Source: Deltaproteobacteria bacterium (lineage in GTDB: Bacteria > Desulfobacterota > Syntrophobacteria > Syntrophobacterales > Syntrophobacteraceae). From it: 64,000 nt of DNA. The stretch lies in NCBI GenBank assembly GCA_021777755.1, contig JAJYDE010000008.1:14984-78983 (forward strand), in the 5' to 3' direction. Within the stretch, counting starts at the first letter, position 1. Each line of letters opens with the position of its first letter. The notes under the pieces are model-generated. The model did not search any database, was not told the DNA's origin, and saw only the letters and a list, made by a program, of their open reading frames with translations. The translations under genes and the position numbers were made by a program. Below are positions 32,901 through 63,997 of this stretch, piece by piece.

Positions 32901-33008
32901 CGTTACTCGGGGATTCGCCCAGGGACGTTTTATGCCGGAGTCCGTGGTCGCCCGCCCCGGCGATCTTCAAGCCGGGGTCCAGGGGGCGCCGGGCCGAAAG
33001 GGTAGCCC

Positions 33009-33347
33009 ATGCGCATGCTTGTTACGGGAGCCGGCGGGCTCATCGGTTCAGAGGTGGTCTCCTATTTTTCCGGTCGTTGCGAGTCCATTACGGGACTTGA
33101 CAACAACATGAGGGCCGACTTCTTCGGCCCGGAAGGCGATGTGCGGTGGAATATCGCCAAGCTCGAAACCAGCTATGCAAATTTCAAAAACCGCATTTGT
33201 GACATACGCGACAAAGACGCCGTCCAGGCGTTTTTCCGGGAACAACCGCTCGATGTGGTGGTCCATTGCGCCGCCCAGCCCTCCCATGATCTTGCCGCAT
33301 CCCGCCCGCTCGATGATTTCCACGGTGGCCGCCTGGCATCGGCATGA
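33009..33347 (+). pseudogene. truncated NAD-dependent sugar epimerase/dehydratase (N-terminal ~100 aa only)
   Basis: A Rossmann motif MRMLVTGAGGLIGS and HCAAQPSHD match the first third of CDP-paratose-2-epimerase-like SDRs (normally about 330 aa). The frame ends at residue 112, and I found no continuation in any frame of the next 100 nt. Confidence 0.7.
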
Positions 33348-33448
33348 AAAAGGTCGCGAGAACCTCGTCGAATTGGTGTCGGACAACCGCGAAGGACTGA
33401 CTGCCTCGGGGCTGTAATGCGTGGCGCCCGTGTTTCAAGGGGGAATTT

Positions 33449-34618
33449 TTGCGAAGTTTTGAAGTTGCCTCGGATATTGTTGCCACTGATCCGAATGGAA
33501 ATATCCATTTCGATCGGTCGCGGGAGAGAAGAGCCAATAGGGTGACTCGCCGCTTCGACATAAATATGGGTTTTAAATGCAATTTTCGCTGCAAGTTCTG
33601 TTACTACCTGGGCGCCATTAATGCCGGAAAAACGCGGGACCTCTCCACGGAGGAGGTGAAGCGGCGATTGCGGGTCGGGCGAAGTTGGGGGAAAACCGCT
33701 GTGGATCTGACCGGTGGCGAGCCAACGATGCGCGAAGATCTCGCGGAACTTGTCTCCTTTGCCCGAAAGATCGGCTATCAGACTGTCTGTATCATCACCA
33801 ACGGCTGGATAATAGGCTCCAATAAGGACTATCTTCAAAAGTTGGCCGAGGCCGGATTAAATGACATCCTGATGTCGCTTCACGGCCCCGATGCCGAAAC
33901 CCACCAGGAACTGACCGGCAAGAAGGGCTCCTACGAGCGGTTCCTGGCCGCGGTGGAGAGGGTAAAGCACACCCCTGGCGTGCGCCTTCGGTTCAACCAC
34001 GTGATATGCGAGCAAAACTTCGAAAAGATCGAAAAAAGCGGCGATCTTCTCGCCTCTTTTGAACCGGACGCAATGAATTTCATTTTGTTTCAGCCAACAC
34101 GCGATGCCTTGAGGGCCGAGAAGGCCATAAAGTTTCGAAGCTACAAACAGGTGACTCCCCATCTTGCGCAAGCCATAGAGAAACACCGGGCGAGGGTCCC
34201 CCGCATAAATGTCCGCGATCTTCCCTTTTGCCTCTTGAAGGGTTTTGAGCCCCACATAAAGACGATGTTCCAGCTCCAGTACGAAAAGGTGGAGTGGGAT
34301 TACTGCCTGGACGTGATATTCAAGAAGGGTTATCCTTTCTACGGGGCGAGCGCGGTGTTCGGGGCGATTCTGAGCGCTGAAAACCCTTATTTCCGCACGG
34401 CCGACTGGGATAACAAAAGACACCTTGCCATACAGCGGGCGCGCGCGTTTACGATGCGGAAACAGGGTGGGGCGTGCGCCCGGTGCGCGATCACCCACAT
34501 ATGCGACGGTCTTGTCAAAGACTACTTTGAGCGGTGCGGAGATGGCGAGCTGTCGCCTTACAGCGGGGAGCGGATAACAAATCCGACGTACTTCATCGAG
34601 CGGGATGAGCTTGAATGA
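33449..34618 (+). CDS. radical SAM enzyme with SPASM/twitch-like C-terminal Cys motif
   Basis: 389 aa. Carries CNFRCKFC (CX3CX2C), DLTGGEPTM and a C-terminal CARCAITHICDG (CX2CX5C). TTG start after AAGGGGGAA. It is a paralogue of the 37817-39133 product. Confidence 0.8.
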   Translation: MRSFEVASDIVATDPNGNIHFDRSRERRANRVTRRFDINMGFKCNFRCKFCYYLGAINAGKTRDLSTEEVKRRLRVGRSWGKTAVDLTGGEPTMREDLAELVSFARKIGYQTVCIITNGWIIGSNKDYLQKLAEAGLNDILMSLHGPDAETHQELTGKKGSYERFLAAVERVKHTPGVRLRFNHVICEQNFEKIEKSGDLLASFEPDAMNFILFQPTRDALRAEKAIKFRSYKQVTPHLAQAIEKHRARVPRINVRDLPFCLLKGFEPHIKTMFQLQYEKVEWDYCLDVIFKKGYPFYGASAVFGAILSAENPYFRTADWDNKRHLAIQRARAFTMRKQGGACARCAITHICDGLVKDYFERCGDGELSPYSGERITNPTYFIERDELE

Positions 34619-35451
34619 GTTCCCCCGGGGCTTTGATAACTATTGCTATACCGACTTACAACCGGTGTGATGAACTTGCCCGGTGCCTTAAAAGCTGCGT
34701 GACGCACGCCCCCGATTGCCCGATCATTGTTGTCGATGACGGAGGCTCCGACGGGACCGACCTAATGATTCGGGATAATTTCCCCGGGATCGTTTATCTG
34801 AGAAGCGATATGAATCGCGGCCCGGGGCATGCCAGAAATTTGGCCTTTGCCGCGGCAAAGACCGAATATGTGGCCTTTTTCGATTCGGATGTAGTGTTGG
34901 ACCCTGGTTGGTACGAGGCCGCAGGCGGCCGTCTTTCGCCCGATACGATCCTTGCGGGGCGGGTCGAGCAGCCGGAGGGAAAGTTGGAAATAGGGCCTAG
35001 AAAAATGATGCCCTGGGGAGGGAGTCTTCCCTGTCGCCGTGAGGCGTCCGCCAACGTAGCCAGCAGCAACAATATGGTTGTCCCCGTCGGTGTGTACAAA
35101 AAGGTGGGAGGTTTCGACGAATTTCTGGGCATATACTTTGAAGACAGCTACTTTTGCATCTGCGCTCGAAGAGCAGGCATTAAAGTGCGGTATGTCGACA
35201 AAGCCAAGGTCGTCCATTTCCACAACTCTTTTTTCAATGTAGACAGGAAGCGGCGCCAAGTCCGAAACAGAAGTTTTGCAATGACGCGTTCGTCACGAAA
35301 CCCGCTTGCCATGGCCGTTCTTCAATCGGCGGTCACCATGGTGGAGATTTGTTTTCTTCTGGCGGTTGGCAGATACTTGGGCGCCGGGGCATGCTTTGCC
35401 GGGCTTATGAGCGGCTTGCGTGAGGTTGTTACTAGCAAGGGGACGTGTTGA
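34615..35451 (+). CDS. family 2 glycosyltransferase
   Basis: 278 aa. ITIAIPTYNRCDEL, VVDDGGSDGT and the FFDSDVV (DxD) motif define a GT-A fold. The ATG overlaps the radical SAM stop (ATGA). Confidence 0.85.
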   Translation: MSSPGALITIAIPTYNRCDELARCLKSCVTHAPDCPIIVVDDGGSDGTDLMIRDNFPGIVYLRSDMNRGPGHARNLAFAAAKTEYVAFFDSDVVLDPGWYEAAGGRLSPDTILAGRVEQPEGKLEIGPRKMMPWGGSLPCRREASANVASSNNMVVPVGVYKKVGGFDEFLGIYFEDSYFCICARRAGIKVRYVDKAKVVHFHNSFFNVDRKRRQVRNRSFAMTRSSRNPLAMAVLQSAVTMVEICFLLAVGRYLGAGACFAGLMSGLREVVTSKGTC

Positions 35452-35571
35452 TACACTTGTCATGCTGGAGTTTTGGGCTGCAGCGGGGCATACGCTCTTT
35501 CCTGATGAACCTGATATATTAAGGACTACAGGGTAGATGCTGCCTGACGAAAACAGCGGAGAGGGTATGTC

Positions 35572-36432
35572 ATGAATGCGATTCATCGTATGAAACACTT
35601 AATTCCACGGCTTTTATTAAGCTTCAGAATCCCTTATCTGACCGACAGCGTGCGCGAATGCCCAATCTGCCGCGGTGCTTCCGAGCCGGAGAATTGCAAA
35701 CGACGTTCCGATCTGTGGCGTTGCACCGTCTGTGATCATGTGTATGCTGCCAGTGTACCTCGTAGGTTGTTGCTTGAGCATCTTTATGGCGGCATGCAGT
35801 ATTGGCTGATGGACAAGGGACATCAGGGCATTCAGACAATAGCCTTCGGCTCACAGTGGGATGGCTTTCTGGAAGCACGGATGGCCATCCTGGTTAGAGC
35901 GGGATTAAATTGTAACGGAGCGGGAAAGAAAAACATTTTCGAGATCGGGTGCTCCGAGGGAATGTTGGTTGCCAACCTTCAGCGTTGCGGGCATAAAGTT
36001 GCCGGCTGCGATATGAACGCCGCGATTGTTGCTCGCGGAAAACAATGTCTTGGTGTCGACATTGTGGCCGGAGCTTTCGAGGGGCTGTCGTTACCTGTTT
36101 CCACCTATGATTTCGTCATATCTTTCCATACCCTGGAACATATGAGGGCCCCTGAAACGGTGTTCGACAAAATAACGAAGATCCTCCGAGTTGACGGGAC
36201 GGTTGTCATAGAGGTTCCCGGCGGCAAGGAAGAGTACGGAACGCTTGATCACCTGCATTTTTTCTCCCGACAGTCATTGGAAAGATTGATCGCCACGTGG
36301 TTCGAGAAGGTCGAAATTATAGAGAATAGCTATACAAATAGTAATGGAGATCAAGTCTGCTCCTACTACGGTAGTGGCCGCTATCCAAGAAAATTGCAAG
36401 GAAATGGGGGACGCGGTTTGGAGAATGATTAA
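35572..36432 (+). CDS. class I SAM-dependent methyltransferase with N-terminal Zn-ribbon
   Basis: 286 aa. CPICRG...CTVCDH is a four-Cys ribbon. SAM motif I is IFEIGCSEGML, with acidic loop GCDMN. Confidence 0.8.
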   Translation: MNAIHRMKHLIPRLLLSFRIPYLTDSVRECPICRGASEPENCKRRSDLWRCTVCDHVYAASVPRRLLLEHLYGGMQYWLMDKGHQGIQTIAFGSQWDGFLEARMAILVRAGLNCNGAGKKNIFEIGCSEGMLVANLQRCGHKVAGCDMNAAIVARGKQCLGVDIVAGAFEGLSLPVSTYDFVISFHTLEHMRAPETVFDKITKILRVDGTVVIEVPGGKEEYGTLDHLHFFSRQSLERLIATWFEKVEIIENSYTNSNGDQVCSYYGSGRYPRKLQGNGGRGLEND

Positions 36433-36735
36433 ACAAGTAGCAACGGGGTGGTCATCAGGACACTCTACAAATGAGAGCTTTTACGTTCTGTCGCCTTTCG
36501 AACAGTCTTTTGGAAAATCGGGCTCGTTTAATGGGGGATTTCGCGTGACCATCAGGGGCCTTGATCGGCTGTGGGAGCCGATAGGTGTTTCCCTGGAGGT
36601 TTGCCAACGTGGACGCCCGATTTTGTTACGATCACAAATCTCGGTTGGGTCTTTAATTGACACGGGGAGAGCCTGATATATTCATTTATCTAAAATGTTC
36701 ACCAGACAGTCCAAGCCGTGTTTAAAGAATGTCGG

Positions 36736-37851
36736 TCAAAGATATGCACAATCGTAAGTCTCAACGTCAAGCGGAACCTTTCGTGACACGTTCCGTTTGC
36801 GGAAGAGGCGTCCAAAATATAATACACTTAATTGTAAAAAAGTCAGGTTGGTGAGAAAAAAAAGAACGTATCTATTTACTCCAAGTGAAACTATTTCACG
36901 TATATTGTCATTATCAAACAAGATGTCATACGGTGTTAAAATATAGGAAAGAGCATACATAAATCTTTTAAGGGACAGGAGGCTAATGAATTGTTCATGG
37001 TATTTGAGGAGGTGAGCCAAAATACATTCTAGTAAAGTCACGTGCGAGGGATGTTGCCTCAGATCGCCGGTTGGCAATCGACCCCCCAAAATGGGATTTA
37101 TGGAAAAACCATTCTTGCTGTGCCGACGATAGCTGCCATGCACTGTTGGAATTAGCAATGATCCCCCAATGAGATTTGCGAAATGGCAGATGTAGTTATC
37201 TGCGCAGATGCGAAAGGGGCGGCTGTCCTCGGGCATGATTATGTCAAGGGTTGAACGACGGAACATCATTGAACTGGTCGTCGCCCAAACCCAGTAAGCC
37301 ATTTGAAGCGGCAGTGGGCGGACCACCGTATTCTGTCCCTTATGGCTTAAATCGGGGTGCATACCGGCAATAATCTCATTTTTTTCATTTATCTGGAACT
37401 GATTCGAACTCGTGAAAGCTACGGGCATGAAATTTAGATGAGCTTTGACATGTGTCCATAAAAAATCCTCGAAGAGCTGATCATCAGCGTCAACGAACAC
37501 GACGAAAATGCCCTCGGTGTGCTTTAAACCTGTCTTGAAGGCTTCCATTTGGCCACCGTTTTCATCATGCCGGATGAGTTGAAATCTGCCTTCGAGATTG
37601 TGGGACTTAATGAATCCTTCCACAACCTCGACGGATCGGTCCAGTGAGCAGTCATCGACGATAACGCACTTGAAATTCGTATACGTCTGTTTAAGGATGG
37701 AATCAAGACACCGTCCAATGTAATCGGCATAATTATAGCAACTGACAATCACGGCGACTTCTGGAAACCTGAAATGTTCTTGATGCGGGTCAATATTAGC
37801 ATATTGAAAATTCCAACTATAAGGACCATTCATAATCTTCCCTTTCAACAA
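36736..37851 (-). CDS. family 2 glycosyltransferase with C-terminal hydrophobic segment
   Basis: 371 aa. VAVIVSCYNYADYIGRCLDSILKQTY, VIVDDCSLDRS and the VDADD (DxD) motif define GT2, and YVLFFLTNLTFLQLSVLYF forms a C-terminal hydrophobic span. The start overlaps the upstream radical SAM stop (17-35 nt depending on ATG). Confidence 0.8.
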   Translation of the reverse strand: MLKGKIMNGPYSWNFQYANIDPHQEHFRFPEVAVIVSCYNYADYIGRCLDSILKQTYTNFKCVIVDDCSLDRSVEVVEGFIKSHNLEGRFQLIRHDENGGQMEAFKTGLKHTEGIFVVFVDADDQLFEDFLWTHVKAHLNFMPVAFTSSNQFQINEKNEIIAGMHPDLSHKGQNTVVRPLPLQMAYWVWATTSSMMFRRSTLDIIMPEDSRPFRICADNYICHFANLIGGSLLIPTVHGSYRRHSKNGFSINPILGGRLPTGDLRQHPSHVTLLECILAHLLKYHEQFISLLSLKRFMYALSYILTPYDILFDNDNIREIVSLGVNRYVLFFLTNLTFLQLSVLYFGRLFRKRNVSRKVPLDVETYDCAYL

Positions 37852-39133
37852 TCTTATCCTGTTGCACTATGTAATGTCTAGGATCTGAAAAGCGGGGTCC
37901 ATTAATAATCGGACTAGCCTCGGTGGTTCCGAATAAGTTTGTGTAGTCACCATGAAAGCCATCGCATATAGGCTTTATCGAACAATTATCACAGACCGGG
38001 GCATAGGAGTATTTGCAATGTACCGAAGCTCTCATTTGCGCATTTTTACGGTAAAGCTCATCAATGCCTAGTGTTTTAGATGGAGTGACAACTACTCGCA
38101 ATTTGTGGTAAACGGAGAGAAGATACTTGCGCAGATCCGGGGTAGCGCGTGTAACACCATTTATGAAGTGAACGACTGATTTAGATAATAGACCATATTT
38201 AGTCAAATCGAAGGTCACATCGCTCAGGGAAACAGTGGGAGTGGGGCATCCATCTCTCATGCGTTGCGGCTGGAGGCCTGTCCACGACCATGAGGCATAG
38301 TCCCATTCATGGGTATCATAGGGGAGCTGCTGGAAGTTGTAGATAGATTTTCTATGCCTCTCACTAACAATGCAAAACGGAATATAGCGGACGTTGCACT
38401 CGATGCCAGCATCATCTAAAATATCCAAAGCAGCATCTAGATTTGGTTTGATATCGCTGTATCGAGGTACGTTTTCGGATGATCTCTTGTCTGAATTTTG
38501 CTGATCCTCAAATGGGTTGAAAGCGATAAAATTTACGACACGGGCTCCAGAGTTTATCGCCAGATGTGAGATTTCTCTGATTTGTGGAAGCGCTTCCTTT
38601 GAAAGCACGCAATTAAAGCGAAATGGAAGGCCAATTTTCTGCAGATTTTCCAGAGCCTTCATCTGCCTCGCATGAGCTCCTGGCACACCAACAATTTTGC
38701 TGTAGGTTTCACCAATGCCATGAACGCTGATGAGAAGATCGCGAATCCCTGAGTCAATGAGCCTTTGGCATTTGTCATAGTTATCGAGCACTATGGCATT
38801 GGTGATAAGAGTTGGAATCAGCCCGATATCACGACAATAGCGAACCAGTTCGTAGATATCGGGGTAGATCATAGGCTCTCCTCCCTGTATATCAATGGCG
38901 CAATTAGCATAGTGATCGACAAGCGTAGTGCATATCTGTTTTGCTTTATCGAGAGACATAAATGGATGCTCAGGGTGGTCTTTTTTTGCAATTCGATCCA
39001 GAAAATAGCAGAAATGGCAGCGCAAATTGCAAGTCTGTCCTAACCAGAGCACTCCCCTTCGGGTCAAAACCCGGCGCCTCGATTTTTGATATTCCGCGAT
39101 GCCAGAGTCAATAAAAATTTCATGCGAAATCAT
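37817..39133 (-). CDS. radical SAM enzyme with SPASM/twitch-like C-terminal Cys motif (low-GC paralogue)
   Basis: 438 aa. Carries CNLRCHFC (CX3CX2C), DIQGGEPMI and a C-terminal CDNCSIKPICDG. Its tail aligns with that of the 33449-34618 product. Confidence 0.8.
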   Translation of the reverse strand: MISHEIFIDSGIAEYQKSRRRVLTRRGVLWLGQTCNLRCHFCYFLDRIAKKDHPEHPFMSLDKAKQICTTLVDHYANCAIDIQGGEPMIYPDIYELVRYCRDIGLIPTLITNAIVLDNYDKCQRLIDSGIRDLLISVHGIGETYSKIVGVPGAHARQMKALENLQKIGLPFRFNCVLSKEALPQIREISHLAINSGARVVNFIAFNPFEDQQNSDKRSSENVPRYSDIKPNLDAALDILDDAGIECNVRYIPFCIVSERHRKSIYNFQQLPYDTHEWDYASWSWTGLQPQRMRDGCPTPTVSLSDVTFDLTKYGLLSKSVVHFINGVTRATPDLRKYLLSVYHKLRVVVTPSKTLGIDELYRKNAQMRASVHCKYSYAPVCDNCSIKPICDGFHGDYTNLFGTTEASPIINGPRFSDPRHYIVQQDKIVEREDYEWSL

Positions 39134-39172
39134 AGTTATTCCCCCAGTAGTGTGTAATTAGGTTTATTTAAG

Positions 39173-40582
39173 CTAATTTCCATTATCCAAAGACTGGGTG
39201 GTGTTTATTAGGAAGGCGCCAGTAAAATAATTATACATACCGGGAGAAAATTCCCTCGGCTCCATTTCGGCAAAAGTCAATACTCGGCTGCGGAAATGAA
39301 AATCGGAATTGACAACGCACGCCCTGAGATTTCTTTGGTCGGTCTGGAACTGGAGGTCGGGTTGCTGGTCATCGCTTGTGGCCACCATATCGGTTTGATC
39401 CGCAGAGCAGAGAATATCCCAATTATGGTAGTCTCTGGTGGTGAAATCGGGAGGGAATCTACCATTTTGGGCGCCGCAACGCCAATTGTCGTACTTTTCT
39501 GAAATCATGGCGTTTGCCTGGTATTTCTCGATGAAAACGCTTTCCTTGACTTCCATCAAGACGCTCCACCGGATGTGCCGGGGGCTTATGAACTCCAAAT
39601 CCCATTGCTGTACGATCGGAAATGAAAAAAACTCTCCCACGCATTTTATGTGTCGATCATTTACAGTGATGCATTTCCAGACCGCCCTCGTCGAGTCGTT
39701 CCAGAAAACGGTATTTTTGACGCCGGGCTGACTTATAAGCATGGAGGTGTAGAGGCCGAATCTTTTGGTTATTTCCATGTTTTTCCAATACACCATGGCC
39801 TTGCCATTGTTGAATATCACCACCAGATCGTCATATTTGACGACCGTTGTGCCGGCGGCATCTCCCAGCATCTGCAGATAGCTCCCCATGGCGCTGTCGG
39901 GCGGGCCGCTGGTTACCACCTTGCCTTTGTTCAAAAGCATCACTTCGTCGCATATATTGCTTACCAGTCCCAAGTCATGAGAGACAAAGACCACGGTTTT
40001 CCTGCGGTTACGGAATTCCAGGAATTTGTTAAGGCATTTGCGCTGAAAACTCTCGTCGCCGACCGCGAGAACTTCGTCAACCAGCAGGATATCGGCATCT
40101 GTATGGACCGCCACCGAGAAGCCCAACCGGGTCATCATGCCCGATGAGTACTTGACTATCGGCATGTCAATGAAATCGGCAAGCTCTGAAAATTCGACGA
40201 TTCGATCGTATTTTGCCGCCACTTGCTTCTTGGTGAGACCCATCAAGGCGCCATTTAGAAAAATGTTTTCACGCCCGGTAAGTTCGGTGTGGAACCCGGC
40301 GCTCAATTCTATCATCGGGGCGATCCGGCCGGCGACCTTCAACTGCCCCCTGTCGGGGAAGGTGACTCTTGCCAGGATTTTTAGAATCGTACTCTTGCCA
40401 GCGCCGTTGGGTCCGATGACGCCAAATACCGAACCCTGTTTGACCTCGAAATTGACATTATGGAGGGCCCAAAAATCCGACTTCTTGTCACGAAAGCCCG
40501 ATGTGGAAAAAAATCTCTTGAAGGGACTCCAATTCTGGGTGTTGTATTTCTTGCACAGATTTAAACCTTCTATAACGATCAT
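39173..40582 (-). CDS. wzt: Wzt/TagH-type polysaccharide ABC exporter ATPase with ~220-aa extra C-terminal domain
   Basis: 469 aa. ALHNVNFEVKQGSVFGVIGPNGAGKST, YSSGMMTRLGF and LLVDEVLAVGD are typical of Wzt/TagH. Residues from about 246 to 469 form an unrecognised beta-rich, Trp-rich domain. Confidence 0.85.
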   Translation of the reverse strand: MIVIEGLNLCKKYNTQNWSPFKRFFSTSGFRDKKSDFWALHNVNFEVKQGSVFGVIGPNGAGKSTILKILARVTFPDRGQLKVAGRIAPMIELSAGFHTELTGRENIFLNGALMGLTKKQVAAKYDRIVEFSELADFIDMPIVKYSSGMMTRLGFSVAVHTDADILLVDEVLAVGDESFQRKCLNKFLEFRNRRKTVVFVSHDLGLVSNICDEVMLLNKGKVVTSGPPDSAMGSYLQMLGDAAGTTVVKYDDLVVIFNNGKAMVYWKNMEITKRFGLYTSMLISQPGVKNTVFWNDSTRAVWKCITVNDRHIKCVGEFFSFPIVQQWDLEFISPRHIRWSVLMEVKESVFIEKYQANAMISEKYDNWRCGAQNGRFPPDFTTRDYHNWDILCSADQTDMVATSDDQQPDLQFQTDQRNLRACVVNSDFHFRSRVLTFAEMEPREFSPGMYNYFTGAFLINTTQSLDNGN

Positions 40583-40592
40583 AAATCATTTC

Positions 40593-41363
40593 TCACATCA
40601 CATCAGCGAAGTTTTTTTCCAGCTTTCTGAACACGGCATAACCAAGCAAAAAAAGAATTACTCCAGCAAGCATGACTCTGGATAACATACCGATATCGGG
40701 CGGTGTGCCAAAAACGAGAATGCGCCTGTACGAGTCCACCAGTCCGGCAACCGGATTCATGATGTAGATGGTTCTCCATCTTGCTGGAACCGCATTCAAC
40801 TGATACATTACCGGAGAAGCAAGCATCCAAAACTGCATAATAAGCGGTATCCCAATCACAAGATCTCTACCATAAACGGCAGCAGATGATACTAAAAGCA
40901 CAAGGCCAAATGAAACAAAAATCTGAATAACAATTAAAAGTGGAAGATATAAGACCATGGATGTTATTGGGACATGATAGTACACAGCCAATGGAAAATA
41001 CAGTAAAAGCGGGATGAAAAGATCAATAACAGATACAATTACGGAGGCTGCAGGAAACATTTCTCTGGGGCAGTAGATTTTTTTAATAATATGAGAATTG
41101 GATATGAAGCTATATGTTCCTGCGATTATAGAATTCGAAAAGCATGACCAGGGAATAAGTGCGGAACAAATTAGCAACGAATGTGGAACTTTCTCGCCTT
41201 TGACTCCGAGAAACCTATATATCATCACGAAGAGAGCCGTCAAAACCAGCGGTTGAATAAAGGCCCAAGCCGGACCCAGCAAAGATCGCCTGTAGCGCAC
41301 GATCAGCTCTCGACGAACAAGAGCCAGCATCAGATCCTTCTTGCTTAGGATGTCGGAAATCAT
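40593..41363 (-). CDS. wzm: ABC-2 type polysaccharide exporter permease (Wzm/TagG-like)
   Basis: 256 aa with 6 hydrophobic spans. The N-terminal LVRRELIVRYRRSLLGPAWAFIQPL is the ABC-2 Wzm signature. It lies directly upstream of wzt. Confidence 0.85.
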   Translation of the reverse strand: MISDILSKKDLMLALVRRELIVRYRRSLLGPAWAFIQPLVLTALFVMIYRFLGVKGEKVPHSLLICSALIPWSCFSNSIIAGTYSFISNSHIIKKIYCPREMFPAASVIVSVIDLFIPLLLYFPLAVYYHVPITSMVLYLPLLIVIQIFVSFGLVLLVSSAAVYGRDLVIGIPLIMQFWMLASPVMYQLNAVPARWRTIYIMNPVAGLVDSYRRILVFGTPPDIGMLSRVMLAGVILFLLGYAVFRKLEKNFADVM

Positions 41364-41623
41364 GATTGCTGTACCTTGCCGGTTGGCGCAAAAAGAGATC
41401 CGCGCACTTGCGCGGTCGAGCCTGATTGTGAAAGCAAAAAGTTTGCCAATTGCGCCCCTTCAGGTGGCCCGGAGCCACCATCGTAATTCGTCATACAAGA
41501 GAAACTCGCCAACCCGCGCGATAAGCAAGCCCTGCTGTAGTGTAGGTGCCGGTCTGTTCGGTCCCGCTTGCCGTTTCGAGAGTCGGCGAAATGCGCATTG
41601 GCGCCAGGCTCTCCTGTGGTCGA

Positions 41624-45221: not shown

Positions 45222-45668
45222 CGAGTCCTCGGGGCGTTTGAATTTCTCCAATGGCTCAGGCGTGCGATCGGGGATGTGTGCCACAGAATTTGCTGGCGAC
45301 ATTTCCACCGGTTTCCAAGCGCGCTCCAACCGGATGCCTTCTCCCCCCCACGTTTAAGATCGCCCGGCGGCAAGACTCACCGAAACTTGTTTCCGGTGCC
45401 GGGAAAACTTTGTGCGCGGTCCCGAGATCTCGTATCAGGTTTTAAGAGACCGCTTTCGTAGCTTTCTACGTTCCAAGCGATCCTTCCGGACATCGGATTT
45501 GCGTCGATTCAAACCTGTTAAAGGCGATTGGTCCTTGCCCTGGACTCCCCGGCCGTGTTTTTGCGGCACATAAATTGCTTCTTCGCTTCCGGTGAAAATG
45601 AGGACGCAGGTGGTGAAGAATGCCGTCAAAATTTTGAATCCACGGAGCATGTGAGGAGCACCTTTTAT

Positions 45669-47603
45669 ATGTGTGGTATCGCGGGTATGTTTTTTAATTG
45701 TGCCAAAGGCCCGGTGAGCGAGCCTGACATGTCTTCCGCACTGGGGCGGCTTGCGCGACGCGGACCCGACGGGCAGGGAATAAGCCGCGGCCGGGGCTGG
45801 GTCTTCGGGCACAGGCGTTTGGCGGTCATCGACTTGAAGGGGGGAGTGCAGCCCTTCGAGGCTCCCGGCGGCGTGCTCACCTATAACGGAGAGCTTTACA
45901 ACTACCGGGAGCTACGGGACCAGTTGCGGGCCGCGGGGCAGGTGTTTACGACGGCTTCCGATACCGAGGTGCTGCTCAAGTCCTGGTTGTTCTGGGGCCC
46001 CGATTGCCTCAAGCGTTTCAACGGCATGTTCGCCTTCGCCATCTATGACGCCGCACAAGACGCCCTCTTCCTGGCCAGGGACCACCTGGGGATCAAGCCG
46101 CTCTTTTATCATGCCGGTAAAAGCGGGTTCTATTTCGCTTCATCGATGGCGGCGCTGCTGGCCTTTAAAGAGGTGCCTGCGGTAGCCGACCCCGTGGGGA
46201 TCTCCCATTATCTTACCACCACCCAGGTGACAATGGGCGCCCGCACCCTGGTAAAGGAGGTGTGCTGCCTGGAACCGGGCCACTGGCTGGAGGTGCGGCG
46301 CGATTTCGAGGAAAATCCGCCCAAGGCCTTGCGCTACTGGCGAATTGCCGACCAAAGCCGGGAGGCGATACCCTTCGAAGATGCGCTCGCCCGGACGCGC
46401 GAGCTTGTCCACGACTCGGTGCGGTCACAGCTGGTAAGCGATGTGCCTTTGGGCGGATTTTTAAGTGGTGGCATCGACTCGACAATCATCGCCTCTCAGG
46501 CGTCCAAACTCTGTTCTTTCAACGCCTATAGCGTGGGATACGATTGTGCGCCCTTCGCCGGCGAATCCTACAACGAATGGCCATATATTCGAGAGGCCGC
46601 GGCTCGCTATGGTATTGGATGCAAGGAAATTGTCCTGCGGGAATCGGATTACCCCGAGGACTGGAAATTTCTCATCGCCCAAAAGGGCCAACCCCTCAGC
46701 ACACCCAATGAAATCGGCATCTACAGGCTGGCCGACGCCTTGAGACGGGAATATACCGTGGCACTTAGCGGTGAGGGCGCCGACGAGGTCTTCGGGGGAT
46801 ATACCGAAGCCTATTTTTCGGTTACCGATTTCATCCACTCTCAGCACCTGGGCCGGCTTCCACCCAACGTCAGTCAATCCGTTTCCGCCGCCTTGAAGCG
46901 CATGTACGGGACCGATCAGTTTCATTCCCTGCTAGACCATTTTTTGCGAGTGGTCAGTTTCATGAATTTCGGGATCAAATTCAACCTGTTGCGGCCGCAA
47001 TGGCAGGAGGCGCTAAAAAGCGACGAAGCCCTCATCCTTCACTATGCCGAGCGCTTTGCCGCCATGAATAACTGCACGCCTTTCGACACCTACATGCGAT
47101 TGCTGCTGGAAAAAAATCTGCAGAATCTGCTTTTCCGCCTTGATTCGAGCACCATGGCCGCTTCCGTGGAAGGTCGCGTACCCTTCACAGATCCACGCCT
47201 CGTGTCTCTGCTTTTTTCGCTTCCCGATCATTATAAAATGGATTGGACCAAGGAGGCGGGCGAAAACGAAATTTGGAATCTCAACACGGTCGAAGCCGCC
47301 GCCCGGGGACTGATCAGGAGTAAGATTCTGCTGCGGGCCGCTTTTGCCGATGTGGTGCCGCAATCAATCCTCAACAGGGTCAAGGTGAGCTTCCCGGTAC
47401 CGTTTCGCCAATGGTTCGGAGGCTCTTTGCGCCAAATGGTGGAAAGCCGTCTTCGCGAAAACCCCTGGGCCAGGGACTGGTTGCGGCCCGAATCGGTGGA
47501 CATGCTTCTTGCCAACCTGGATCAGGCGGCCTACGCACTGCTTGTGTGGCCTTTGCTCAACCTGTGCCTGTGGCAGGAAGCCATGGGCATCTCCTGGGAG
47601 TAG
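45669..47603 (+). CDS. asparagine synthase-family glutamine amidotransferase (AsnB-like)
   Basis: MCGIAG is the N-terminal nucleophile Cys of class II GATases. SGGIDS is the PP-loop. 644 aa. The ORF upstream of ATG 45669 is non-homologous. Confidence 0.85.
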   Translation: MCGIAGMFFNCAKGPVSEPDMSSALGRLARRGPDGQGISRGRGWVFGHRRLAVIDLKGGVQPFEAPGGVLTYNGELYNYRELRDQLRAAGQVFTTASDTEVLLKSWLFWGPDCLKRFNGMFAFAIYDAAQDALFLARDHLGIKPLFYHAGKSGFYFASSMAALLAFKEVPAVADPVGISHYLTTTQVTMGARTLVKEVCCLEPGHWLEVRRDFEENPPKALRYWRIADQSREAIPFEDALARTRELVHDSVRSQLVSDVPLGGFLSGGIDSTIIASQASKLCSFNAYSVGYDCAPFAGESYNEWPYIREAAARYGIGCKEIVLRESDYPEDWKFLIAQKGQPLSTPNEIGIYRLADALRREYTVALSGEGADEVFGGYTEAYFSVTDFIHSQHLGRLPPNVSQSVSAALKRMYGTDQFHSLLDHFLRVVSFMNFGIKFNLLRPQWQEALKSDEALILHYAERFAAMNNCTPFDTYMRLLLEKNLQNLLFRLDSSTMAASVEGRVPFTDPRLVSLLFSLPDHYKMDWTKEAGENEIWNLNTVEAAARGLIRSKILLRAAFADVVPQSILNRVKVSFPVPFRQWFGGSLRQMVESRLRENPWARDWLRPESVDMLLANLDQAAYALLVWPLLNLCLWQEAMGISWE

Positions 47604-59998: not shown

Positions 59999-60844
59999 TC
60001 ACTGCTGCCTGACCTTCTTGCCGGTAAGGGAAATGAATACGTCTTCGAGATTGACTCGCCTCAGAGAAAAGCTGCCTCCGTTGGCCGTTATGTGGTCGTT
60101 GGCATCTTCTCTATTGCGGAAATAAACCGTCTGCATGTCTCCATCGCCCACCTTGTCGAGTGCCCATGCCCCGATGGCCTCCATGAGGTTTTGCGGGGTG
60201 TCGAGGGCAACGATTATGCCCTTGTCCAGAAAGGCCACCCTGTCCGCCAGAAATTCGGCCTCTTCTATGTAATGGGTGGTAAGAAAGATGGTCGTTCCGT
60301 TTTTTTGGATGCTTTTTACCAAAGACCATATCCGGCGCCTGATGGCCGGATCAAGACCCGCGGTGGGTTCATCGAGAAACAGGATCTTCGGCGAATGCAT
60401 GAGCGCTCTTGCGATCATCACTCTGCGTTTCATTCCGCCCGAGAGCGATTTTACCGCACTGTTGAGCCTGTCCGCTATTTCCACGTACTCCAGGAGTTCT
60501 TCGATCCGCCCAAGGCGCTCCTTGCGAGGCATCTGAAAAAGTTTTCCGTGCAGGTGCAGATTTTCGCCCACGCTCAGTTCGTTGTCGAGATTGATATTTT
60601 GGGTGACGACCCCGCACTGACGCTTGGCCTGCACGCTTTCCTTGTCGATATGAAATCCGTGAAGCCATGCATCGCCGGAAGAAGCCGCCGCGAGCCCGGT
60701 AAGAATCCTGATGGTGGTCGTCTTGCCCGAACCGTTCGGCCCCAGGTAGGAAAAAAGCTCTCCCTCGCCAACCTGGAGACTGACCCCTCTCAGGGCTTCC
60801 ACCTTGCCGTAGAGTTTACGCAGATTTTCGAGTCGAATCATCAT
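59999..60844 (-). CDS. ABC transporter ATP-binding protein (ABC-2 exporter partner)
   Basis: MMIRLENLRKLYGK..., Walker A GPNGSGKTT, signature LSGGMKRR and Walker B LFLDEP. The start is placed at ATG 60844, though the ORF opens at 60913. Confidence 0.85.
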   Translation of the reverse strand: MMIRLENLRKLYGKVEALRGVSLQVGEGELFSYLGPNGSGKTTTIRILTGLAAASSGDAWLHGFHIDKESVQAKRQCGVVTQNINLDNELSVGENLHLHGKLFQMPRKERLGRIEELLEYVEIADRLNSAVKSLSGGMKRRVMIARALMHSPKILFLDEPTAGLDPAIRRRIWSLVKSIQKNGTTIFLTTHYIEEAEFLADRVAFLDKGIIVALDTPQNLMEAIGAWALDKVGDGDMQTVYFRNREDANDHITANGGSFSLRRVNLEDVFISLTGKKVRQQ

Positions 60845-61054
60845 TCGGGGCTTCCGCGATCCATCTGCAGATCCTCTTTCAGGTTGAACATGGGAAATGC
60901 TAATGTTATGCAAAATCGTAAAAATTGTGAAGACTCAAATTTTCCGCTTCCAAATGCGTGGCGGTTGCCCGCGTTTTTTCGTTGAACTATCACCCTTATT
61001 TATACCAAACTCCGAGGTTGACCTGCGATCGTCGATGTTGTAGCATGGCTTCGC

Positions 61055-61225
61055 TTTTTAGTAGCGTCAGGTACTTTCGAGTTTAATTGGGAATCCCGTG
61101 AAATTCGGGAACGGTCCCGCCGCTGTATACGGGGACGAAATCCGGTTTGCCACTTTCTCGCGCTGGCGGGTGGGGAAGGCTTGGAGAGTAGGGAGATCCG
61201 TGAGTCAGAAGACCTGCCTGATGCC
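61055..61225 (+). promoter_or_regulatory. cobalamin (B12) riboswitch aptamer
   Basis: The + strand carries the conserved blocks in order: GGGAATCCCGTGAAATTCGGGAACGGTCCCGCCGCTGTA, then GCCACT (B12 box), GGGAAGGC, and AGTCAGAAGACCTGCC. Confidence 0.8.
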
Positions 61226-61291
61226 GTTTGGCGCGCCGGCACGTGGTGATGCCGGGTGGCCTTGGCCAAGGACCAAGTAAACTGGGTGCAG

Positions 61292-61328
61292 TCCTGGAAT
61301 TCCAATGGGGAATCCGGGATTTTTTTTT
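61292..61328 (+). terminator. riboswitch expression-platform terminator
   Basis: TCCTGGAATTCC-AATG-GGAATCCGGGA imperfect hairpin followed by nine T residues, about 65 nt after the aptamer. Confidence 0.6.
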
Positions 61329-61486
61329 GGGGCCAAGCTCCGGGGCCTGGCGGCGGAACCGCTCGGAAACTCCCGGTACGAAGCCCTCCGCGCCATTGCA
61401 ACCCGTAAGGCCCCCGTCGTCTTTTGCTCGTGATGATTTCTATTCCGCCGCTTTCCTGAGAATTGCGGCACCGGTTGGAGTGGCTG

Positions 61487-62209
61487 ATGTTGGGCACATT
61501 ATTCGGCATTGGAGTTGGACCTGGAGATCCTGAACTGCTGACCATCAAGGCGGCAAAAATCCTTAGAGAAATTCCCCACGTTTTCGCGGCCTCATCGAGC
61601 AAAAACGATTACAGCCTTGCTTTTGCAATCGTTCGCGAATACCTTCCGAAGGGAGCCAGCGTAGAGCAACTCGATTTTCCGATGACCTTCAGCCATGACC
61701 AACTGGAGGATGCCTGGCAGGCCAACTGCGAAAGGGTCGCCCAATTGTTGGAGGGGGGAAAAGACGTCGCGTTTCTGACCTTGGGAGACCCCCTTACCTA
61801 CAGCACCTTCTCCTACCTTATGCGCAAGGTCCGCGGCCGGCTTCCCGAAGTCAACGTCACCGTAATTCCGGGAATCACCGCTTTCCAAGCCGCCGCCGCC
61901 TGTGCCAAAGAGCCCCTGGTCGAAGGCGAGGAGAGTCTCGCCATCGTTTCGGCGGCCAAAGGCGTGGACAAACTCAAGGACGCCATGAGTGTGGCCGAAA
62001 ACATCGTCATGATGAAGACCTATAAGCGGTTTCCTCAGATCCTGGCTCAAATCCGGGAAGAAGGTTTGCAGGATCGCTGTTTTTTCATAAGCAGGTGCGG
62101 ATTGGACGGGCAGGTCGTGGAGCGCGACTTCGACAGGCTCGAGTCTATGGAACAGCCTCCGAACTACCTGTCCCTCATGATCATAAAGAAAAACGGGCTG
62201 GGGAAATAA
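61487..62209 (+). CDS. cbiL: precorrin-2 / cobalt-factor II C20-methyltransferase
   Basis: MLGTLFGIGVGPGDPELLTIKAAKIL is the tetrapyrrole methylase N-terminus, and FLTLGDP is also present. The CbiL/CobI-like length is about 240 aa. Confidence 0.85.
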   Translation: MLGTLFGIGVGPGDPELLTIKAAKILREIPHVFAASSSKNDYSLAFAIVREYLPKGASVEQLDFPMTFSHDQLEDAWQANCERVAQLLEGGKDVAFLTLGDPLTYSTFSYLMRKVRGRLPEVNVTVIPGITAFQAAAACAKEPLVEGEESLAIVSAAKGVDKLKDAMSVAENIVMMKTYKRFPQILAQIREEGLQDRCFFISRCGLDGQVVERDFDRLESMEQPPNYLSLMIIKKNGLGK

Positions 62210-62216
62210 CGCTTTT

Positions 62217-62996
62217 TCATGGTCGCTCCCCCTTTTTGAAAGCCACCTGAAGCGTATCGCAAAAATCGTTGTGCGCCACCCGTGCATGGACATTGAACAC
62301 ATCCCCAAGCACCTCGGCGGTAAGCACCTGTTCCAGGGGGCCCTCGGCCGCCACACTGCCGGCCTTCATGCAAATCAGCCGGTCGCAGTAGAGCGCCGCA
62401 AGGTTGACATCCTGCATTACGGCCACGACCAGCGAATCCGAGCACACCTTTGCCGCCGCCAGATTGAGCATCGACAGGCTATGGTGCATGTCAAGGCTTG
62501 CGGTTGCCTCATCGAGCAGCATCACCGGCGTCTTTTGCGCCAGGCAGCGGGCAAAGACCACCCGCTGGCGCTCCCCGCCGCTGAGTTGGTTGACGTGGCG
62601 CGCCTGGAAACCGTCGAGATCGGCCTGCCGCATGACCTCCTCCACTATGGCGCGGTCCGCCTCGCCCGGCTGTGCGAACCGGGGAATATGGGGATAGCGA
62701 CCCATCATGACGATTTCCCGGCAGGTATAGGGGAAATTGATCCGGAAATCCTGGGGGACGATCGCGATGCTTCGGGCGATCGTTTTGCGGTCGAGTCGAT
62801 GCAGGGGACTGCCCTTCAGCCGCACGCAACCATGCTCGGGCCGCAGGTGGCCGGCCAGAAGGTCGAGCAGGGTGCTCTTGCCGCAGCCGTTGGGGCCGAT
62901 GATGCCGTAAAAATGGCCCGTTTCCAACCTCAGGTTGAGATCTTCAAAAACAGGCCTTGCGTCATAGGAAAATCCGACATGCTCCAGAGAGTACAT
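62217..62996 (-). CDS. ABC ATP-binding protein of FecE/BtuD type (siderophore/cobalamin importer)
   Basis: The start MYSLEHVGFSY at ATG 62996 overlaps the permease stop (ATGA). Carries Walker A GPNGCGKST, LSGGERQR and LLDEATASLD. The long N-terminal extension of the ORF (to 63782) is an out-of-frame overlap with the permease. Confidence 0.85.
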   Translation of the reverse strand: MYSLEHVGFSYDARPVFEDLNLRLETGHFYGIIGPNGCGKSTLLDLLAGHLRPEHGCVRLKGSPLHRLDRKTIARSIAIVPQDFRINFPYTCREIVMMGRYPHIPRFAQPGEADRAIVEEVMRQADLDGFQARHVNQLSGGERQRVVFARCLAQKTPVMLLDEATASLDMHHSLSMLNLAAAKVCSDSLVVAVMQDVNLAALYCDRLICMKAGSVAAEGPLEQVLTAEVLGDVFNVHARVAHNDFCDTLQVAFKKGERP

Positions 62997-63997
62997 CACG
63001 GGGCCTGCCGGTTTTGCAGCATGCGCCTGCGGTAAATATAACAAAAACAAGGCCCGCCTATCAGCGCCGTTACGACGCCGATGGGAATTTGCCCGGGCAA
63101 AAGGGTGCGGGTTAGCGTATCGGCTCCCAGCAGCAGGAGTCCCCCGGCCAGGGCCGAAACCGGGATGAGGAGCCGGTTGTCCGGCCCGGTCACCGAACGT
63201 ACCAGGTGAGGCACCAGCAATCCCACAAAGCCTATAATGCCCGAAACGGCCACACAGACCCCCGTAACCAGGGAAGCCGTGATCAGCAGCAACAGGGAAA
63301 TCCGGCGAGGCGATACGCCCAGGGAGCCTGCCGTGCGGTTCCCCAGGGCGAGCAGGTTGAGGTCCCGGCTGAAATATAAAAAAACCGAAAGCCCTGAAGC
63401 GGTCGTTACGGCAAGCAGTCCGACCTCGGCCCAGGTCCTTGAAGCAAAGCTGCCCATCAGCCAGAAAATGATGACCCCGACTGAATCGTTGGCCAGATAT
63501 TTTATGAGGCTGACTCCCGCGGAAAGTATGGAAGAAACGATTATGCCGGCAAGAATCAGGCTGCCCGAGGACAATTCCGCGCTTGCGGCCGTAAGATAGA
63601 TCACCGCCGCCAGTGTGGCCGCGGCTCCGGCAAAAGCAAAGGCGGGGGCCGACCAGAGCCCCAGAAGAGTAAAATTGAACAGCAGTGCGAGCGAGGCCCC
63701 GAAGGCCGCCCCCGCCGATATGCCCAAGGTGTACGGCTCGGCTAGCGGATTTAGCAGTATCCCCTGAAACACCGCGCCGCAAACCGCGAGGTTTCCCCCC
63801 ACCAGCATGGCTGCAAGGATTCGCGGAAGGCGCACATCCATGACCACCACGGGGGCCGTGCGGCCAAGATTTGCGATCAACCCGGTGTCTCCGCTCATCT
63901 TTGCCGCGACGATCCGAATGACTTCCAAAAATGGAATCCTCACATAGCCCGAGCCAGCGGACAAAACGACGACGCTACCCAGCGCAATCGCCAGCAC
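62996..63997 (-). CDS. FecCD/BtuC-family ABC importer permease (5' end probably cut by window edge)
   Basis: 333 aa visible with about 9 TM spans. RLPRILAAMLVGGNLAVCGAVFQGILLNPLAEPYTLGISAGA is the FecCD signature. The ORF runs to the last full codon of the window. Confidence 0.85.
   Translation of the reverse strand: MLAIALGSVVVLSAGSGYVRIPFLEVIRIVAAKMSGDTGLIANLGRTAPVVVMDVRLPRILAAMLVGGNLAVCGAVFQGILLNPLAEPYTLGISAGAAFGASLALLFNFTLLGLWSAPAFAFAGAAATLAAVIYLTAASAELSSGSLILAGIIVSSILSAGVSLIKYLANDSVGVIIFWLMGSFASRTWAEVGLLAVTTASGLSVFLYFSRDLNLLALGNRTAGSLGVSPRRISLLLLITASLVTGVCVAVSGIIGFVGLLVPHLVRSVTGPDNRLLIPVSALAGGLLLLGADTLTRTLLPGQIPIGVVTALIGGPCFCYIYRRRMLQNRQAP

Follow-up and report, generated by a model that had tools for sequence, protein, structure and literature searches.

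Two radical SAM/glycosyltransferase pairs and a Wzm/Wzt exporter with a new Wzt C-terminal domain form a putative glycan tailoring and export block in a deltaproteobacterial contig

A 64,000-nucleotide stretch of contig JAJYDE010000008.1 (assembly GCA_021777755.1, positions 14,984 to 78,983 of the forward strand) from a Deltaproteobacteria bacterium of the family Syntrophobacteraceae, hereafter the window, contains an accessory gene block flanked by a PpiD-type gene (SurA_N/Rotamase) on one side and by panC on the other. Two convergent gene sets make up the block: an epimerase remnant, a radical S-adenosylmethionine (SAM) enzyme (rSAM1), a family 2 glycosyltransferase (GT2_1) and a methyltransferase on the plus strand, and the exporter genes wzm and wzt, a second radical SAM enzyme (rSAM2) and a second glycosyltransferase (GT2_2) on the minus strand (Table 1). 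All eight open reading frames (ORFs) of this anatomy, described in an original prediction made from the letters alone, were present in the ORF list of the window. The strongest partner signal, overlooked in that prediction, is the association of radical SAM enzymes with a new C-terminal domain of Wzt, here called Cdom.

Table 1. Genes and features of the block, with positions in the window
Feature	Position	Strand	Evidence
Truncated short-chain dehydrogenase/reductase (SDR; epimerase/dehydratase) pseudogene	33009..33347	+	N-terminal 107 of ~353 residues; Pfam Epimerase 2.4e-13, profile positions 1-88 of 240
rSAM1, 389 aa	33449..34618	+	PF04055, 100 bits
GT2_1, 278 aa	34615..35451	+	PF00535, 88 bits
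Class-I SAM methyltransferase with N-terminal four-Cys Zn-ribbon, 286 aa	35572..36432	+	Methyltransf_11, _23, _25
GT2_2, 365-371 aa	36736..37851	-	PF00535, 98 bits
rSAM2, 438 aa	37817..39133	-	PF04055, 72 bits
Wzt, glycan ABC exporter ATP-binding subunit, 469 aa	39173..40582	-	ABC_tran
Cdom, Wzt C-terminal domain, residues 241-469	39176..39862	-	No Pfam or PDB sequence match
Wzm, ABC-2 permease with multiple transmembrane segments, 245-256 aa	40593..41363	-	PF01061, 63 bits; hydropathy
Terminator-like hairpin and T-run between panC and wzm	41400..41415	-	Consensus scan only

Each radical SAM gene overlaps a glycosyltransferase gene. The rSAM1 stop and the GT2_1 start share the ATGA at 34615-34618, which was read directly, and the rSAM2 stop (TAG) lies 17 nt inside GT2_2 if the latter starts at ATG 37833, the likelier start, on which gene callers agree (365 aa). 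Both glycosyltransferases belong to GT2 by their PF00535 matches and by a DXD-type motif (DSD in GT2_1, DADD in GT2_2), and hydropathy gave each a C-terminal hydrophobic segment (residues 230-263 in GT2_1, a helix at 328-347 in GT2_2). The Zn-ribbon cysteines of the methyltransferase are C30, C33, C51 and C54; its orthologues, scoring 220-278 bits, were found in eight rSAM2 loci and lie directly after wzt in three of them (L066, L068, L084; loci carry L numbers throughout).

Both radical SAM proteins passed the superfamily test, with scores above the PF04055 cut-off of 29.5 bits and the cluster-binding motifs CNFRCKFC (rSAM1) and CNLRCHFC (rSAM2). rSAM1 further contains GGEP, EWD, C261 and C343xxC346xxxxxC352; in rSAM2 the corresponding elements are C35x3C39x2C42, GGEP and E276-W277-D278, with C254, C381, C384 and C390 as candidate auxiliary-cluster ligands. 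The two are paralogues (31% identity, 1e-36, over the first ~280 residues) and belong to one uncharacterised family. Alignment of 124 sequences of both families found C35/C39/C42, GGEP, C254, E276-W277-D278 and C381xxC384xxxxxC390 to be invariant. The four extra invariant cysteines, a number sufficient for one auxiliary cluster, are probably the ligands of a second [4Fe-4S] cluster. The label "SPASM-like" first given to these proteins had to be dropped: the SPASM profile PF13186 found no match at E<=0.01 with the whole proteins or at E<=10 with their isolated C-terminal parts, and in place of the seven-Cys SPASM motif for two auxiliary clusters both have just CX2CX5C and one upstream invariant Cys. 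When compared with twitch enzymes, C254, C381, C384 and C390 were compatible with one cluster, and the C-terminal fold matched no solved twitch enzyme. Pfam gave a weak Fer4_12 match in both proteins and the B12-binding domain PF02310 in neither.

NCBIfam was used to place the two proteins, and no curated family accepted either, all scores lying far under the cut-offs. Archaeal MoaA scored best, with 103 bits for a cut-off of 325, followed by AhbD, with 90 bits for a cut-off of 500, and membership of MoaA, AhbD and PqqE failed at the curated cut-offs. The other candidates rejected were MftC (54.5 and 57.1 bits, TIGR03962 cut-off 265), BlsE (rSAM1 60 bits, cut-off 400), Tes (rSAM1 78 bits, cut-off 450) and the anaerobic sulfatase maturase anSME, for which rSAM2 scored 52 bits (TIGR03942 cut-off 349) and whose model was outside the 25 best of 75 families for rSAM1. 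The scan thus puts neither enzyme in a well-characterised family with an unrelated role, an outcome that had been allowed for at the outset. A PDB sequence-profile search returned generic radical SAM cores only. The AlphaFold 2 model of rSAM2 was of high quality (predicted local distance difference test, pLDDT, 91.9; predicted template modelling score, pTM, 0.90), and a Foldseek search of the PDB aligned only its ~240-aa core (template modelling score, TM, ~0.42; 12-22% identity) with an undiscriminating set comprising GDGT-MAS, DesII, SkfB, SuiB, viperin, BlsE and PFL-AE; the C-terminal ~190 aa had no counterpart among the solved structures. rSAM1 homologues are rare, with 56 among 5.8 billion proteins. 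rSAM2 homologues form at least 1124 clusters, with relatives in 227 species-level genomes, and a plasmid collection held no rSAM2 homologue and only one partial core match.

These structural matches bear on whether the enzymes act on lipids. The substrate of the radical SAM proteins would then be a membrane lipid or the polyprenol carrier, in the manner of Tes/GDGT-MAS or HpnJ, and the glycosyltransferases would make a glycolipid head group. GDGT-MAS was indeed the top Foldseek match (3.4e-11), UbiA and FAD-reductase (flavin adenine dinucleotide, FAD) genes lie beside distant rSAM1 relatives, and HpnJ-like B12-binding radical SAM proteins occur in sister loci. However, the GDGT-MAS match was no better than those of about 40 other radical SAM cores, the Tes cut-off was not approached, the window has no lipid-synthesis genes and the exporter is of the glycan type, so that we regard lipid chemistry as very improbable.

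The exporter passed the test for a Wzm/Wzt glycan transporter, with its PF01061 match and an ATPase of the Wzt/TagH clade. Among solved structures, the nearest relatives of the ATPase half were Wzt of Aquifex aeolicus (2e-64) and then TagH/TarH; NCBIfam grouped Wzt with TagH and galactan Wzt, under their cut-offs, and Wzm resembled the galactan Wzm/RfbD model. The classical Wzt_C domain (PF14524) found no match in Wzt, and Cdom in its place, of ~215-229 aa, matched no Pfam family and no PDB sequence. That Cdom might be a divergent Wzt_C was rejected at the sequence level, hhalign giving a probability of 0.1% against Wzt_C domains from the same locus set.

Cdom was present in 25 of the 36 Wzt proteins of the radical SAM loci and is tandemly duplicated in forms of ~690 aa. 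When 1.84 billion representatives were searched exhaustively with HMMER, 396 proteins with one to seven copies each were found at E<=1e-3. Among the top 150, 81 start with a Wzt ATPase domain and five are Cdom-radical SAM fusions (P0278, P0281, P0198, P0201 and P0295): P0278 and P0281 combine two Cdom copies with Radical_SAM and SPASM, and P0295 (1856 aa) joins a Wzt ATPase, five Cdom copies, Radical_SAM and SPASM in one chain. Further fusions of Cdom to radical SAM/SPASM or B12-binding radical SAM domains were found at L101:8650-10158, L108:8608-12432 and L116:8799-14211.

The association was also examined from the opposite side, in loci chosen by Cdom alone. A metagenome scan with an alignment of four close Cdom sequences retrieved 26 loci, about 22 with usable flanks, and radical SAM genes were found in 19 of these ~22 and directly beside the Cdom protein in 17, counts that refer to Cdom loci alone. 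Usually one to six of them stand in a row immediately behind wzt, comprising GT2-radical SAM fusions, SPASM-type and B12-binding radical SAM enzymes and Cdom-radical SAM fusions. The GT2-radical SAM fusion is a ~640-aa protein with Pfam Glycos_transf_2 at residues 9-173 and Radical_SAM at 334-497; such fusions, seen in L096 (8659-10578) and also in L097, L104-L107 and L115, end in a Cys-rich CLLPCFCD tail and directly follow a Wzt with three Cdom copies. Two B12-binding radical SAM proteins, at L005:16648-18150 and L108:8608-12432, adjoin GT2 genes and have HpnJ as top NCBIfam match, at 266-346 bits against a cut-off of 577.6 and over nearly the full model. The radical SAM enzymes fused to or beside Cdom represent several subfamilies only remotely like rSAM1 and rSAM2, and the recurring feature is the combination of Cdom with GT2 and radical SAM rather than one orthologous enzyme. 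Upstream of wzm, these loci carry a GT4, a WecA/MraY-type transferase (PF00953; best curated model WecA), an FAD amine-oxidase-like protein and a tetratricopeptide repeat (TPR) protein, and the PF00953 WecA-type gene and the GT4 are both present in the sister locus L096. Because the upstream genes include a GT4 and a WecA/MraY-type transferase, the Cdom group can be placed by its context in polyprenol-linked, ABC-transporter-dependent glycan assembly.

To survey the rSAM2 family, ORFs were called in 85 loci, named after the window proteins to which they were homologous and grouped by all-against-all clustering. The relatives come from Thermodesulfobacteriota, Nitrospirota, Hydrogenedentota, Sorangium, Campylobacterales, Gemmatimonadota and Planctomycetota, among other taxa. 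A GT2 gene was present in 73 of the 85 loci and was the immediate same-strand neighbour in 39; more than one radical SAM gene of the family also occurred in 39, Wzm/Wzt in 34, SDR genes in 26, B12-type radical SAM genes in 19 and the Zn-ribbon methyltransferase cluster in 10, including L001, the contig of the window itself. The recurrence of the exporter near radical SAM relatives, one of the points on which the original prediction could be checked, is borne out, and the methyltransferase recurs as well. Other recurring neighbours were DegT aminotransferases, GT4s, Bac_transf (for instance in Sorangium), AsnB-type amidotransferases and MptE-like proteins. The convergent layout of both cassette types is repeated in L010 (Thermodesulfobacteriota) and L011 (Nitrospirota). 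Geoanaerobacter pelophilus (L118, GCA_018476885.1; JAHCVJ010000003.1, 271-293 kb) has a 12-gene operon, UbiA-GT2-rSAM-rSAM-Wzm-Wzt-?-MT-rSAM2-GT2-TPR-GT2 (MT, methyltransferase), with a GT9 heptosyltransferase gene just past it, after a small ORF. This species and Sorangium cellulosum So ce56 (L055, NC_010162, ~9.29 Mb) are cultured carriers of rSAM2 homologues. In five Wzm-Wzt(Cdom)-rSAM2 units the gene immediately upstream of wzm encodes a glycerate kinase (L033, L050, L066, L071 and L084); these units come from Hydrogenedentota, Nitrospirales, Rhodothermaeota and unclassified metagenome-assembled genomes and were found with the rSAM2 alignment.

The partners of rSAM2 were then counted in 79 loci. 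Orthologues of GT2_2 (at least 200 bits) were found in 24, mostly directly downstream of the rSAM2 homologue: in 17 as the only partner, in six together with another Wzt and in one together with a Cdom-type Wzt. A Cdom-type Wzt was the only partner in 23 loci, and 31 had neither. In Hydrogenedentota the unit is reduced to Wzm-Wzt-[MT]-rSAM2-[rSAM2], with unrelated downstream genes and no glycosyltransferase nearby. rSAM2 is not obligatorily bound to GT2, and the original claim that the radical SAM/GT2 pair is one functional unit goes too far for this family.

The gene context of the rSAM1 family was read in eight independent loci. L005 and L006 (65-67% identity) have the order rSAM-GT2-Wzm-Wzt-MT followed by a second rSAM-GT2 pair; L089 has rSAM-GT2-B12rSAM-B12rSAM and a heparinase II/III-like gene, and L090 has GT2-DUF354-AsnB-rSAM-GT2. 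In L007 (Inmirania) a GT2 gene overlaps the radical SAM start within a locus of the exopolysaccharide type. L009 shows GT2-GT2-rSAM, L091 the same order with one gene inserted, and L008, where the GT2 is two genes off, belongs to a large polysaccharide locus that also encodes Wzy_C, UDP-glucose dehydrogenases, GT1s and a GT-C. A GT2 gene thus adjoins the rSAM1-family gene in six of the eight loci and is at most two genes away in all eight. With these neighbours and with the fusions of sister systems the coupling of radical SAM and GT2 genes is real, whereas "one functional unit" is too strong a description where rSAM2 is concerned. The rSAM1 relatives of L009 and L091 are distant (35-39% identity) and stand in GT2-GT2-rSAM-FAD oxidoreductase units that converge on an rSAM(/SPASM)-UbiA-TPR unit near Peptidase_S74 genes, by appearance a different, uncharacterised arrangement.

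The loci of the relatives hold GT2, GT4, DegT, SDR, AsnB, Bac_transf, WecA-type and GT-C genes, a content that supports a glycan rather than a peptide as the product, as did the original prediction, and the affinity of the ATPase to Aquifex Wzt agrees with this. The contrary proposal is a ribosomally synthesised and post-translationally modified peptide (RiPP) or glycopeptide, whose precursor would be cross-linked or epimerised by the radical SAM enzymes, glycosylated by the GT2s, methylated and exported by the ABC-2 pump. It can draw on the weak, sub-threshold similarity of rSAM1 and rSAM2 to PqqE, SkfB, SuiB and sactipeptide maturases, and on sister loci with several SPASM and B12 radical SAM enzymes, whose best NCBIfam matches include RiPP C-methyltransferases. 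Yet the intergenic gaps of the block hold no plausible precursor ORF (36433-36735 and 41364-41623 contain small ORFs, none of them convincing), in agreement with what had been noted before; RiPP recognition element (RRE), PqqD, protease and SPASM domain are all absent; neighbouring genes are of the WecA-type, GT4, DegT, SDR and Bac_transf kinds, and the ATPase is of the Wzt/TagH type. A peptide product is hardly credible on these grounds.

O-antigens, capsule-like polymers, S-layer glycans and teichoic acids are all products of Wzm/Wzt pathways. From gene content and context, we consider it somewhat more likely than not that the block serves such a pathway, for a polyprenol-linked surface glycan, as an accessory module for tailoring and export. 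In this module the two membrane-anchored GT2s would each add one sugar, each being translationally coupled to its radical SAM enzyme. The latter would alter a sugar of the lipid-linked glycan by abstracting hydrogen from one of its C-H bonds, the Zn-ribbon methyltransferase would O-methylate the glycan, and Wzm/Wzt would export the finished chain. Cdom may serve as a polymer- or terminus-binding module that holds the substrate for the exporter and, where fused to them, for the radical SAM enzymes. The auxiliary cluster is fully Cys-ligated in BtrN and anSME. Since it is presumably so here too, our best guess for the radical reaction is that a sugar carbon is oxidised or epimerised.

The substrate of the radical SAM enzymes is deduced from gene context, and a role at the level of the sugar donor fits the adjacency and fusion with GT2 equally well. 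Each radical SAM enzyme would then make an unusual activated sugar, as nucleotide or polyprenyl-phosphate derivative, for transfer by its partner GT2, the exporter being ordinary and Cdom doing no more than read the residue so formed. DesII, BlsE, AprD4 and BtrN act on small-molecule sugars, and DesII and BlsE, together with viperin, which acts on cytidine triphosphate (CTP), are among the best core structural matches of rSAM2. The overlapping radical SAM and GT2 genes, the GT2-radical SAM fusions, the C-terminal hydrophobic helix of both GT2s, resembling that of polyprenyl-phosphate sugar synthases, and the UbiA, GT-C and DUF2079 genes of some loci point the same way. However, the structural matches concern the generic core, for which peptide and lipid enzymes score equally; rSAM2 often accompanies Wzm-Wzt(Cdom) with no glycosyltransferase nearby; and the Cdom-radical SAM fusions are more easily explained if the enzyme acts on a polymer held by Cdom. 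Donor-level chemistry is accordingly the less likely account, although one to be taken seriously.

Besides this ambiguity of substrate, several observations weigh against a tailoring and export module at this locus. No homologues of WecA-type, Bac_transf, GT4 or DegT proteins were found anywhere in the 64-kb window, which also contains no initiating transferase (as previously remarked), no chain-extending glycosyltransferase and no intact nucleotide-sugar gene. The epimerase remnant was correctly recognised as such: the Pfam Epimerase/RmlD match covers the N-terminal region only, gene callers do not call the ORF, and tblastn aligned it with residues 4-107 of full-length SDRs from the rSAM2 loci L015 and L080 (43-49% identity). 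Because only these residues align and the remainder was not found anywhere in the window by tblastn with full-length SDRs, we regard it as a truncated pseudogene. With initiator, extending glycosyltransferase and nucleotide-sugar gene absent from the window and the SDR truncated, the block cannot work alone. The G+C content is 0.44-0.47 over the wzm-wzt-rSAM2-GT2_2 operon and 0.55-0.58 in the flanks and the rSAM1-GT2_1 half (36000-41500, low, compared with ~0.55 over 33000-35500); from this difference, the two convergent halves probably arrived separately. As Cdom-type Wzt and GT2_2 orthologues seldom co-occur, the window combining what only one of the 79 loci has, it may be a mosaic of two systems. 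The neighbourhood counts themselves come from our own ORF and homology calls in loci retrieved with two short conserved peptides, and are biased to close relatives. For Cdom, a glycan-binding role is suggested by analogy with cap-reading Wzt modules, and its single-sequence structure model (pLDDT 40) was too poor for a fold search, hinting at a beta-rich fold.

The truncated SDR, the missing initiating and polymerising enzymes, the G+C step and the rare combination of GT2_2 with a Cdom-type Wzt could also mean that the block is a decaying or mosaic island, a non-functional leftover of glycan genes acquired horizontally from two sources and making no product. Against this, none of the other seven ORFs is broken, the catalytic motifs (CX3CX2C, GGEP, DXD, SAM-binding and Walker) are all retained, and identical proteins of the block were found on nine contigs that come from several samples. 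Genes for WecA and other initiating enzymes commonly lie at a distance in the genome. We therefore consider a dead island improbable. The terminator-like hairpin between panC and wzm weakly suggests that transcription of the wzm operon is independent of that of panC; terminator-like sites in the region were in total no more numerous than expected from shuffled sequence, and this one is weak.

Within the tailoring and export module, the products of the radical SAM, GT2 and methyltransferase genes could form a chain-ending cap that licenses export. The known chain-ending signals read by Wzt_C are methyl, phosphate-methyl or 3-deoxy-D-manno-octulosonic acid (Kdo) caps. Chain growth stops when a terminal cap is made, and this cap is recognised by the C-terminal module of Wzt (PMC9445017, PMC3482155); the terminator genes wbdD and wbbB sit after wzm-wzt in model O-antigen loci (PMC3482155, PMC11231755). 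The idea of a cap comes from these modules and from the gene order wzm-wzt-[MT]-rSAM, which matches the terminator position as in wzm-wzt-wbdD of Escherichia coli O9a; we offer this analogy tentatively and hold it to be doubtful. A broader proposal, of an unrecognised Wzm/Wzt class across phyla in which Cdom physically couples the exporter to radical SAM enzymes and a radical-made mark on the lipid-linked glycan, perhaps at the end that grows, stops synthesis and licenses export, is likewise speculative, and we would not rely on it. If it held, it would be the first role of radical SAM chemistry in ABC-transporter-dependent glycan assembly. A true tailoring and export module would bring a new reader domain on Wzt and, into a well-studied pathway, a new class of tailoring enzymes able to act on unactivated sugar carbons; it would give a testable function to two orphan radical SAM families (>1000 sequence clusters) and an orphan domain of 396 representatives, and it would predict unusual, undescribed sugars in Thermodesulfobacteriota, Nitrospirota, Hydrogenedentota, Sorangium and others.

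Two other features were noted elsewhere in the window. An ORF for an AsnB-type asparagine synthase/amidotransferase (691 aa, 45528-47603, plus strand) lies 4 kb past panC; AsnB-like genes recur beside radical SAM genes in seven loci, and this ORF might serve the glycan pathway or housekeeping. A full-length cobalamin riboswitch aptamer (Rfam RF00174, 100.6 bits) is located at 61052-61235 on the plus strand, near ABC-type transporter ORFs (59999-63782).

Among known systems, mycofactocin had been put forward as the parallel, and in both cases a radical SAM enzyme and a GT2 share one locus, MftF (TIGR03965) being the best curated match of GT2_1. The parallel did not hold: the MftF scores were 105.3 bits for GT2_1 and 38.3 bits for GT2_2 against a cut-off of 280, MftC was not reached, mftA, mftB, mftD and mftE are missing from the neighbourhood, there is no SPASM domain and the context is glycan export. 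The GT2 HpnI puts a sugar on a lipid-linked acceptor, and the neighbouring B12-binding radical SAM enzyme HpnJ remodels that sugar. For successive action of a GT2 and a radical SAM enzyme on a lipid-linked sugar, HpnI/HpnJ, not mycofactocin, is the closest precedent in function; in contrast to it, the window enzymes have no B12 domain, HpnJ-like proteins occur only in sister loci and under the cut-off, hopanoid genes are absent and the system includes an exporter. With BtrN, DesII, BlsE and AprD4 the block shares the radical SAM core, and its additional cysteines suggest a redox chemistry of the BtrN kind, but the likeness is confined to the ~240-aa core (TM ~0.4, 15-21% identity) and leaves the C-terminal ~190 aa unmatched.

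Several radical SAM genes inside a surface-glycan locus are also known from a 36-kb plasmid of Brachyspira hyodysenteriae, in which six uncharacterised ones lie among glycosyltransferase and rfb genes (PMC4267127); no rSAM2 homologue was found there at 1e-10, and neither a Wzm/Wzt partnership nor Cdom has been reported for it. Our literature search, of incomplete coverage and therefore giving absence of evidence only, found no description of radical SAM enzymes in Wzm/Wzt pathways or of Cdom, and leads to Xanthomonas and to Geobacter Xap/GSU1501 proved irrelevant.

The closest systems are the O-polysaccharide pathways of E. coli O9a/O8 (WbdD) and Klebsiella O12 (WbbB) and WzmWzt of Aquifex, which like the block have a Wzm permease and a Wzt with a C-terminal extension. 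O-polysaccharide pathways likewise have tailoring genes, including a methyltransferase, directly after wzt, and complete the chain in the cytoplasm on polyprenol, as is presumably the case here, sister loci having a WecA-type initiator (PMC9445017, PMC3482155, PMC11231755). The differences are that the Wzt extension of the block is unrelated to Wzt_C and often tandemly repeated, that radical SAM genes follow wzt, and that no kinase or Kdo-transferase terminator is present. On the present reading, the system works like a Wzm/Wzt O-polysaccharide pathway minus the classical Wzt_C and plus radical SAM enzymes.

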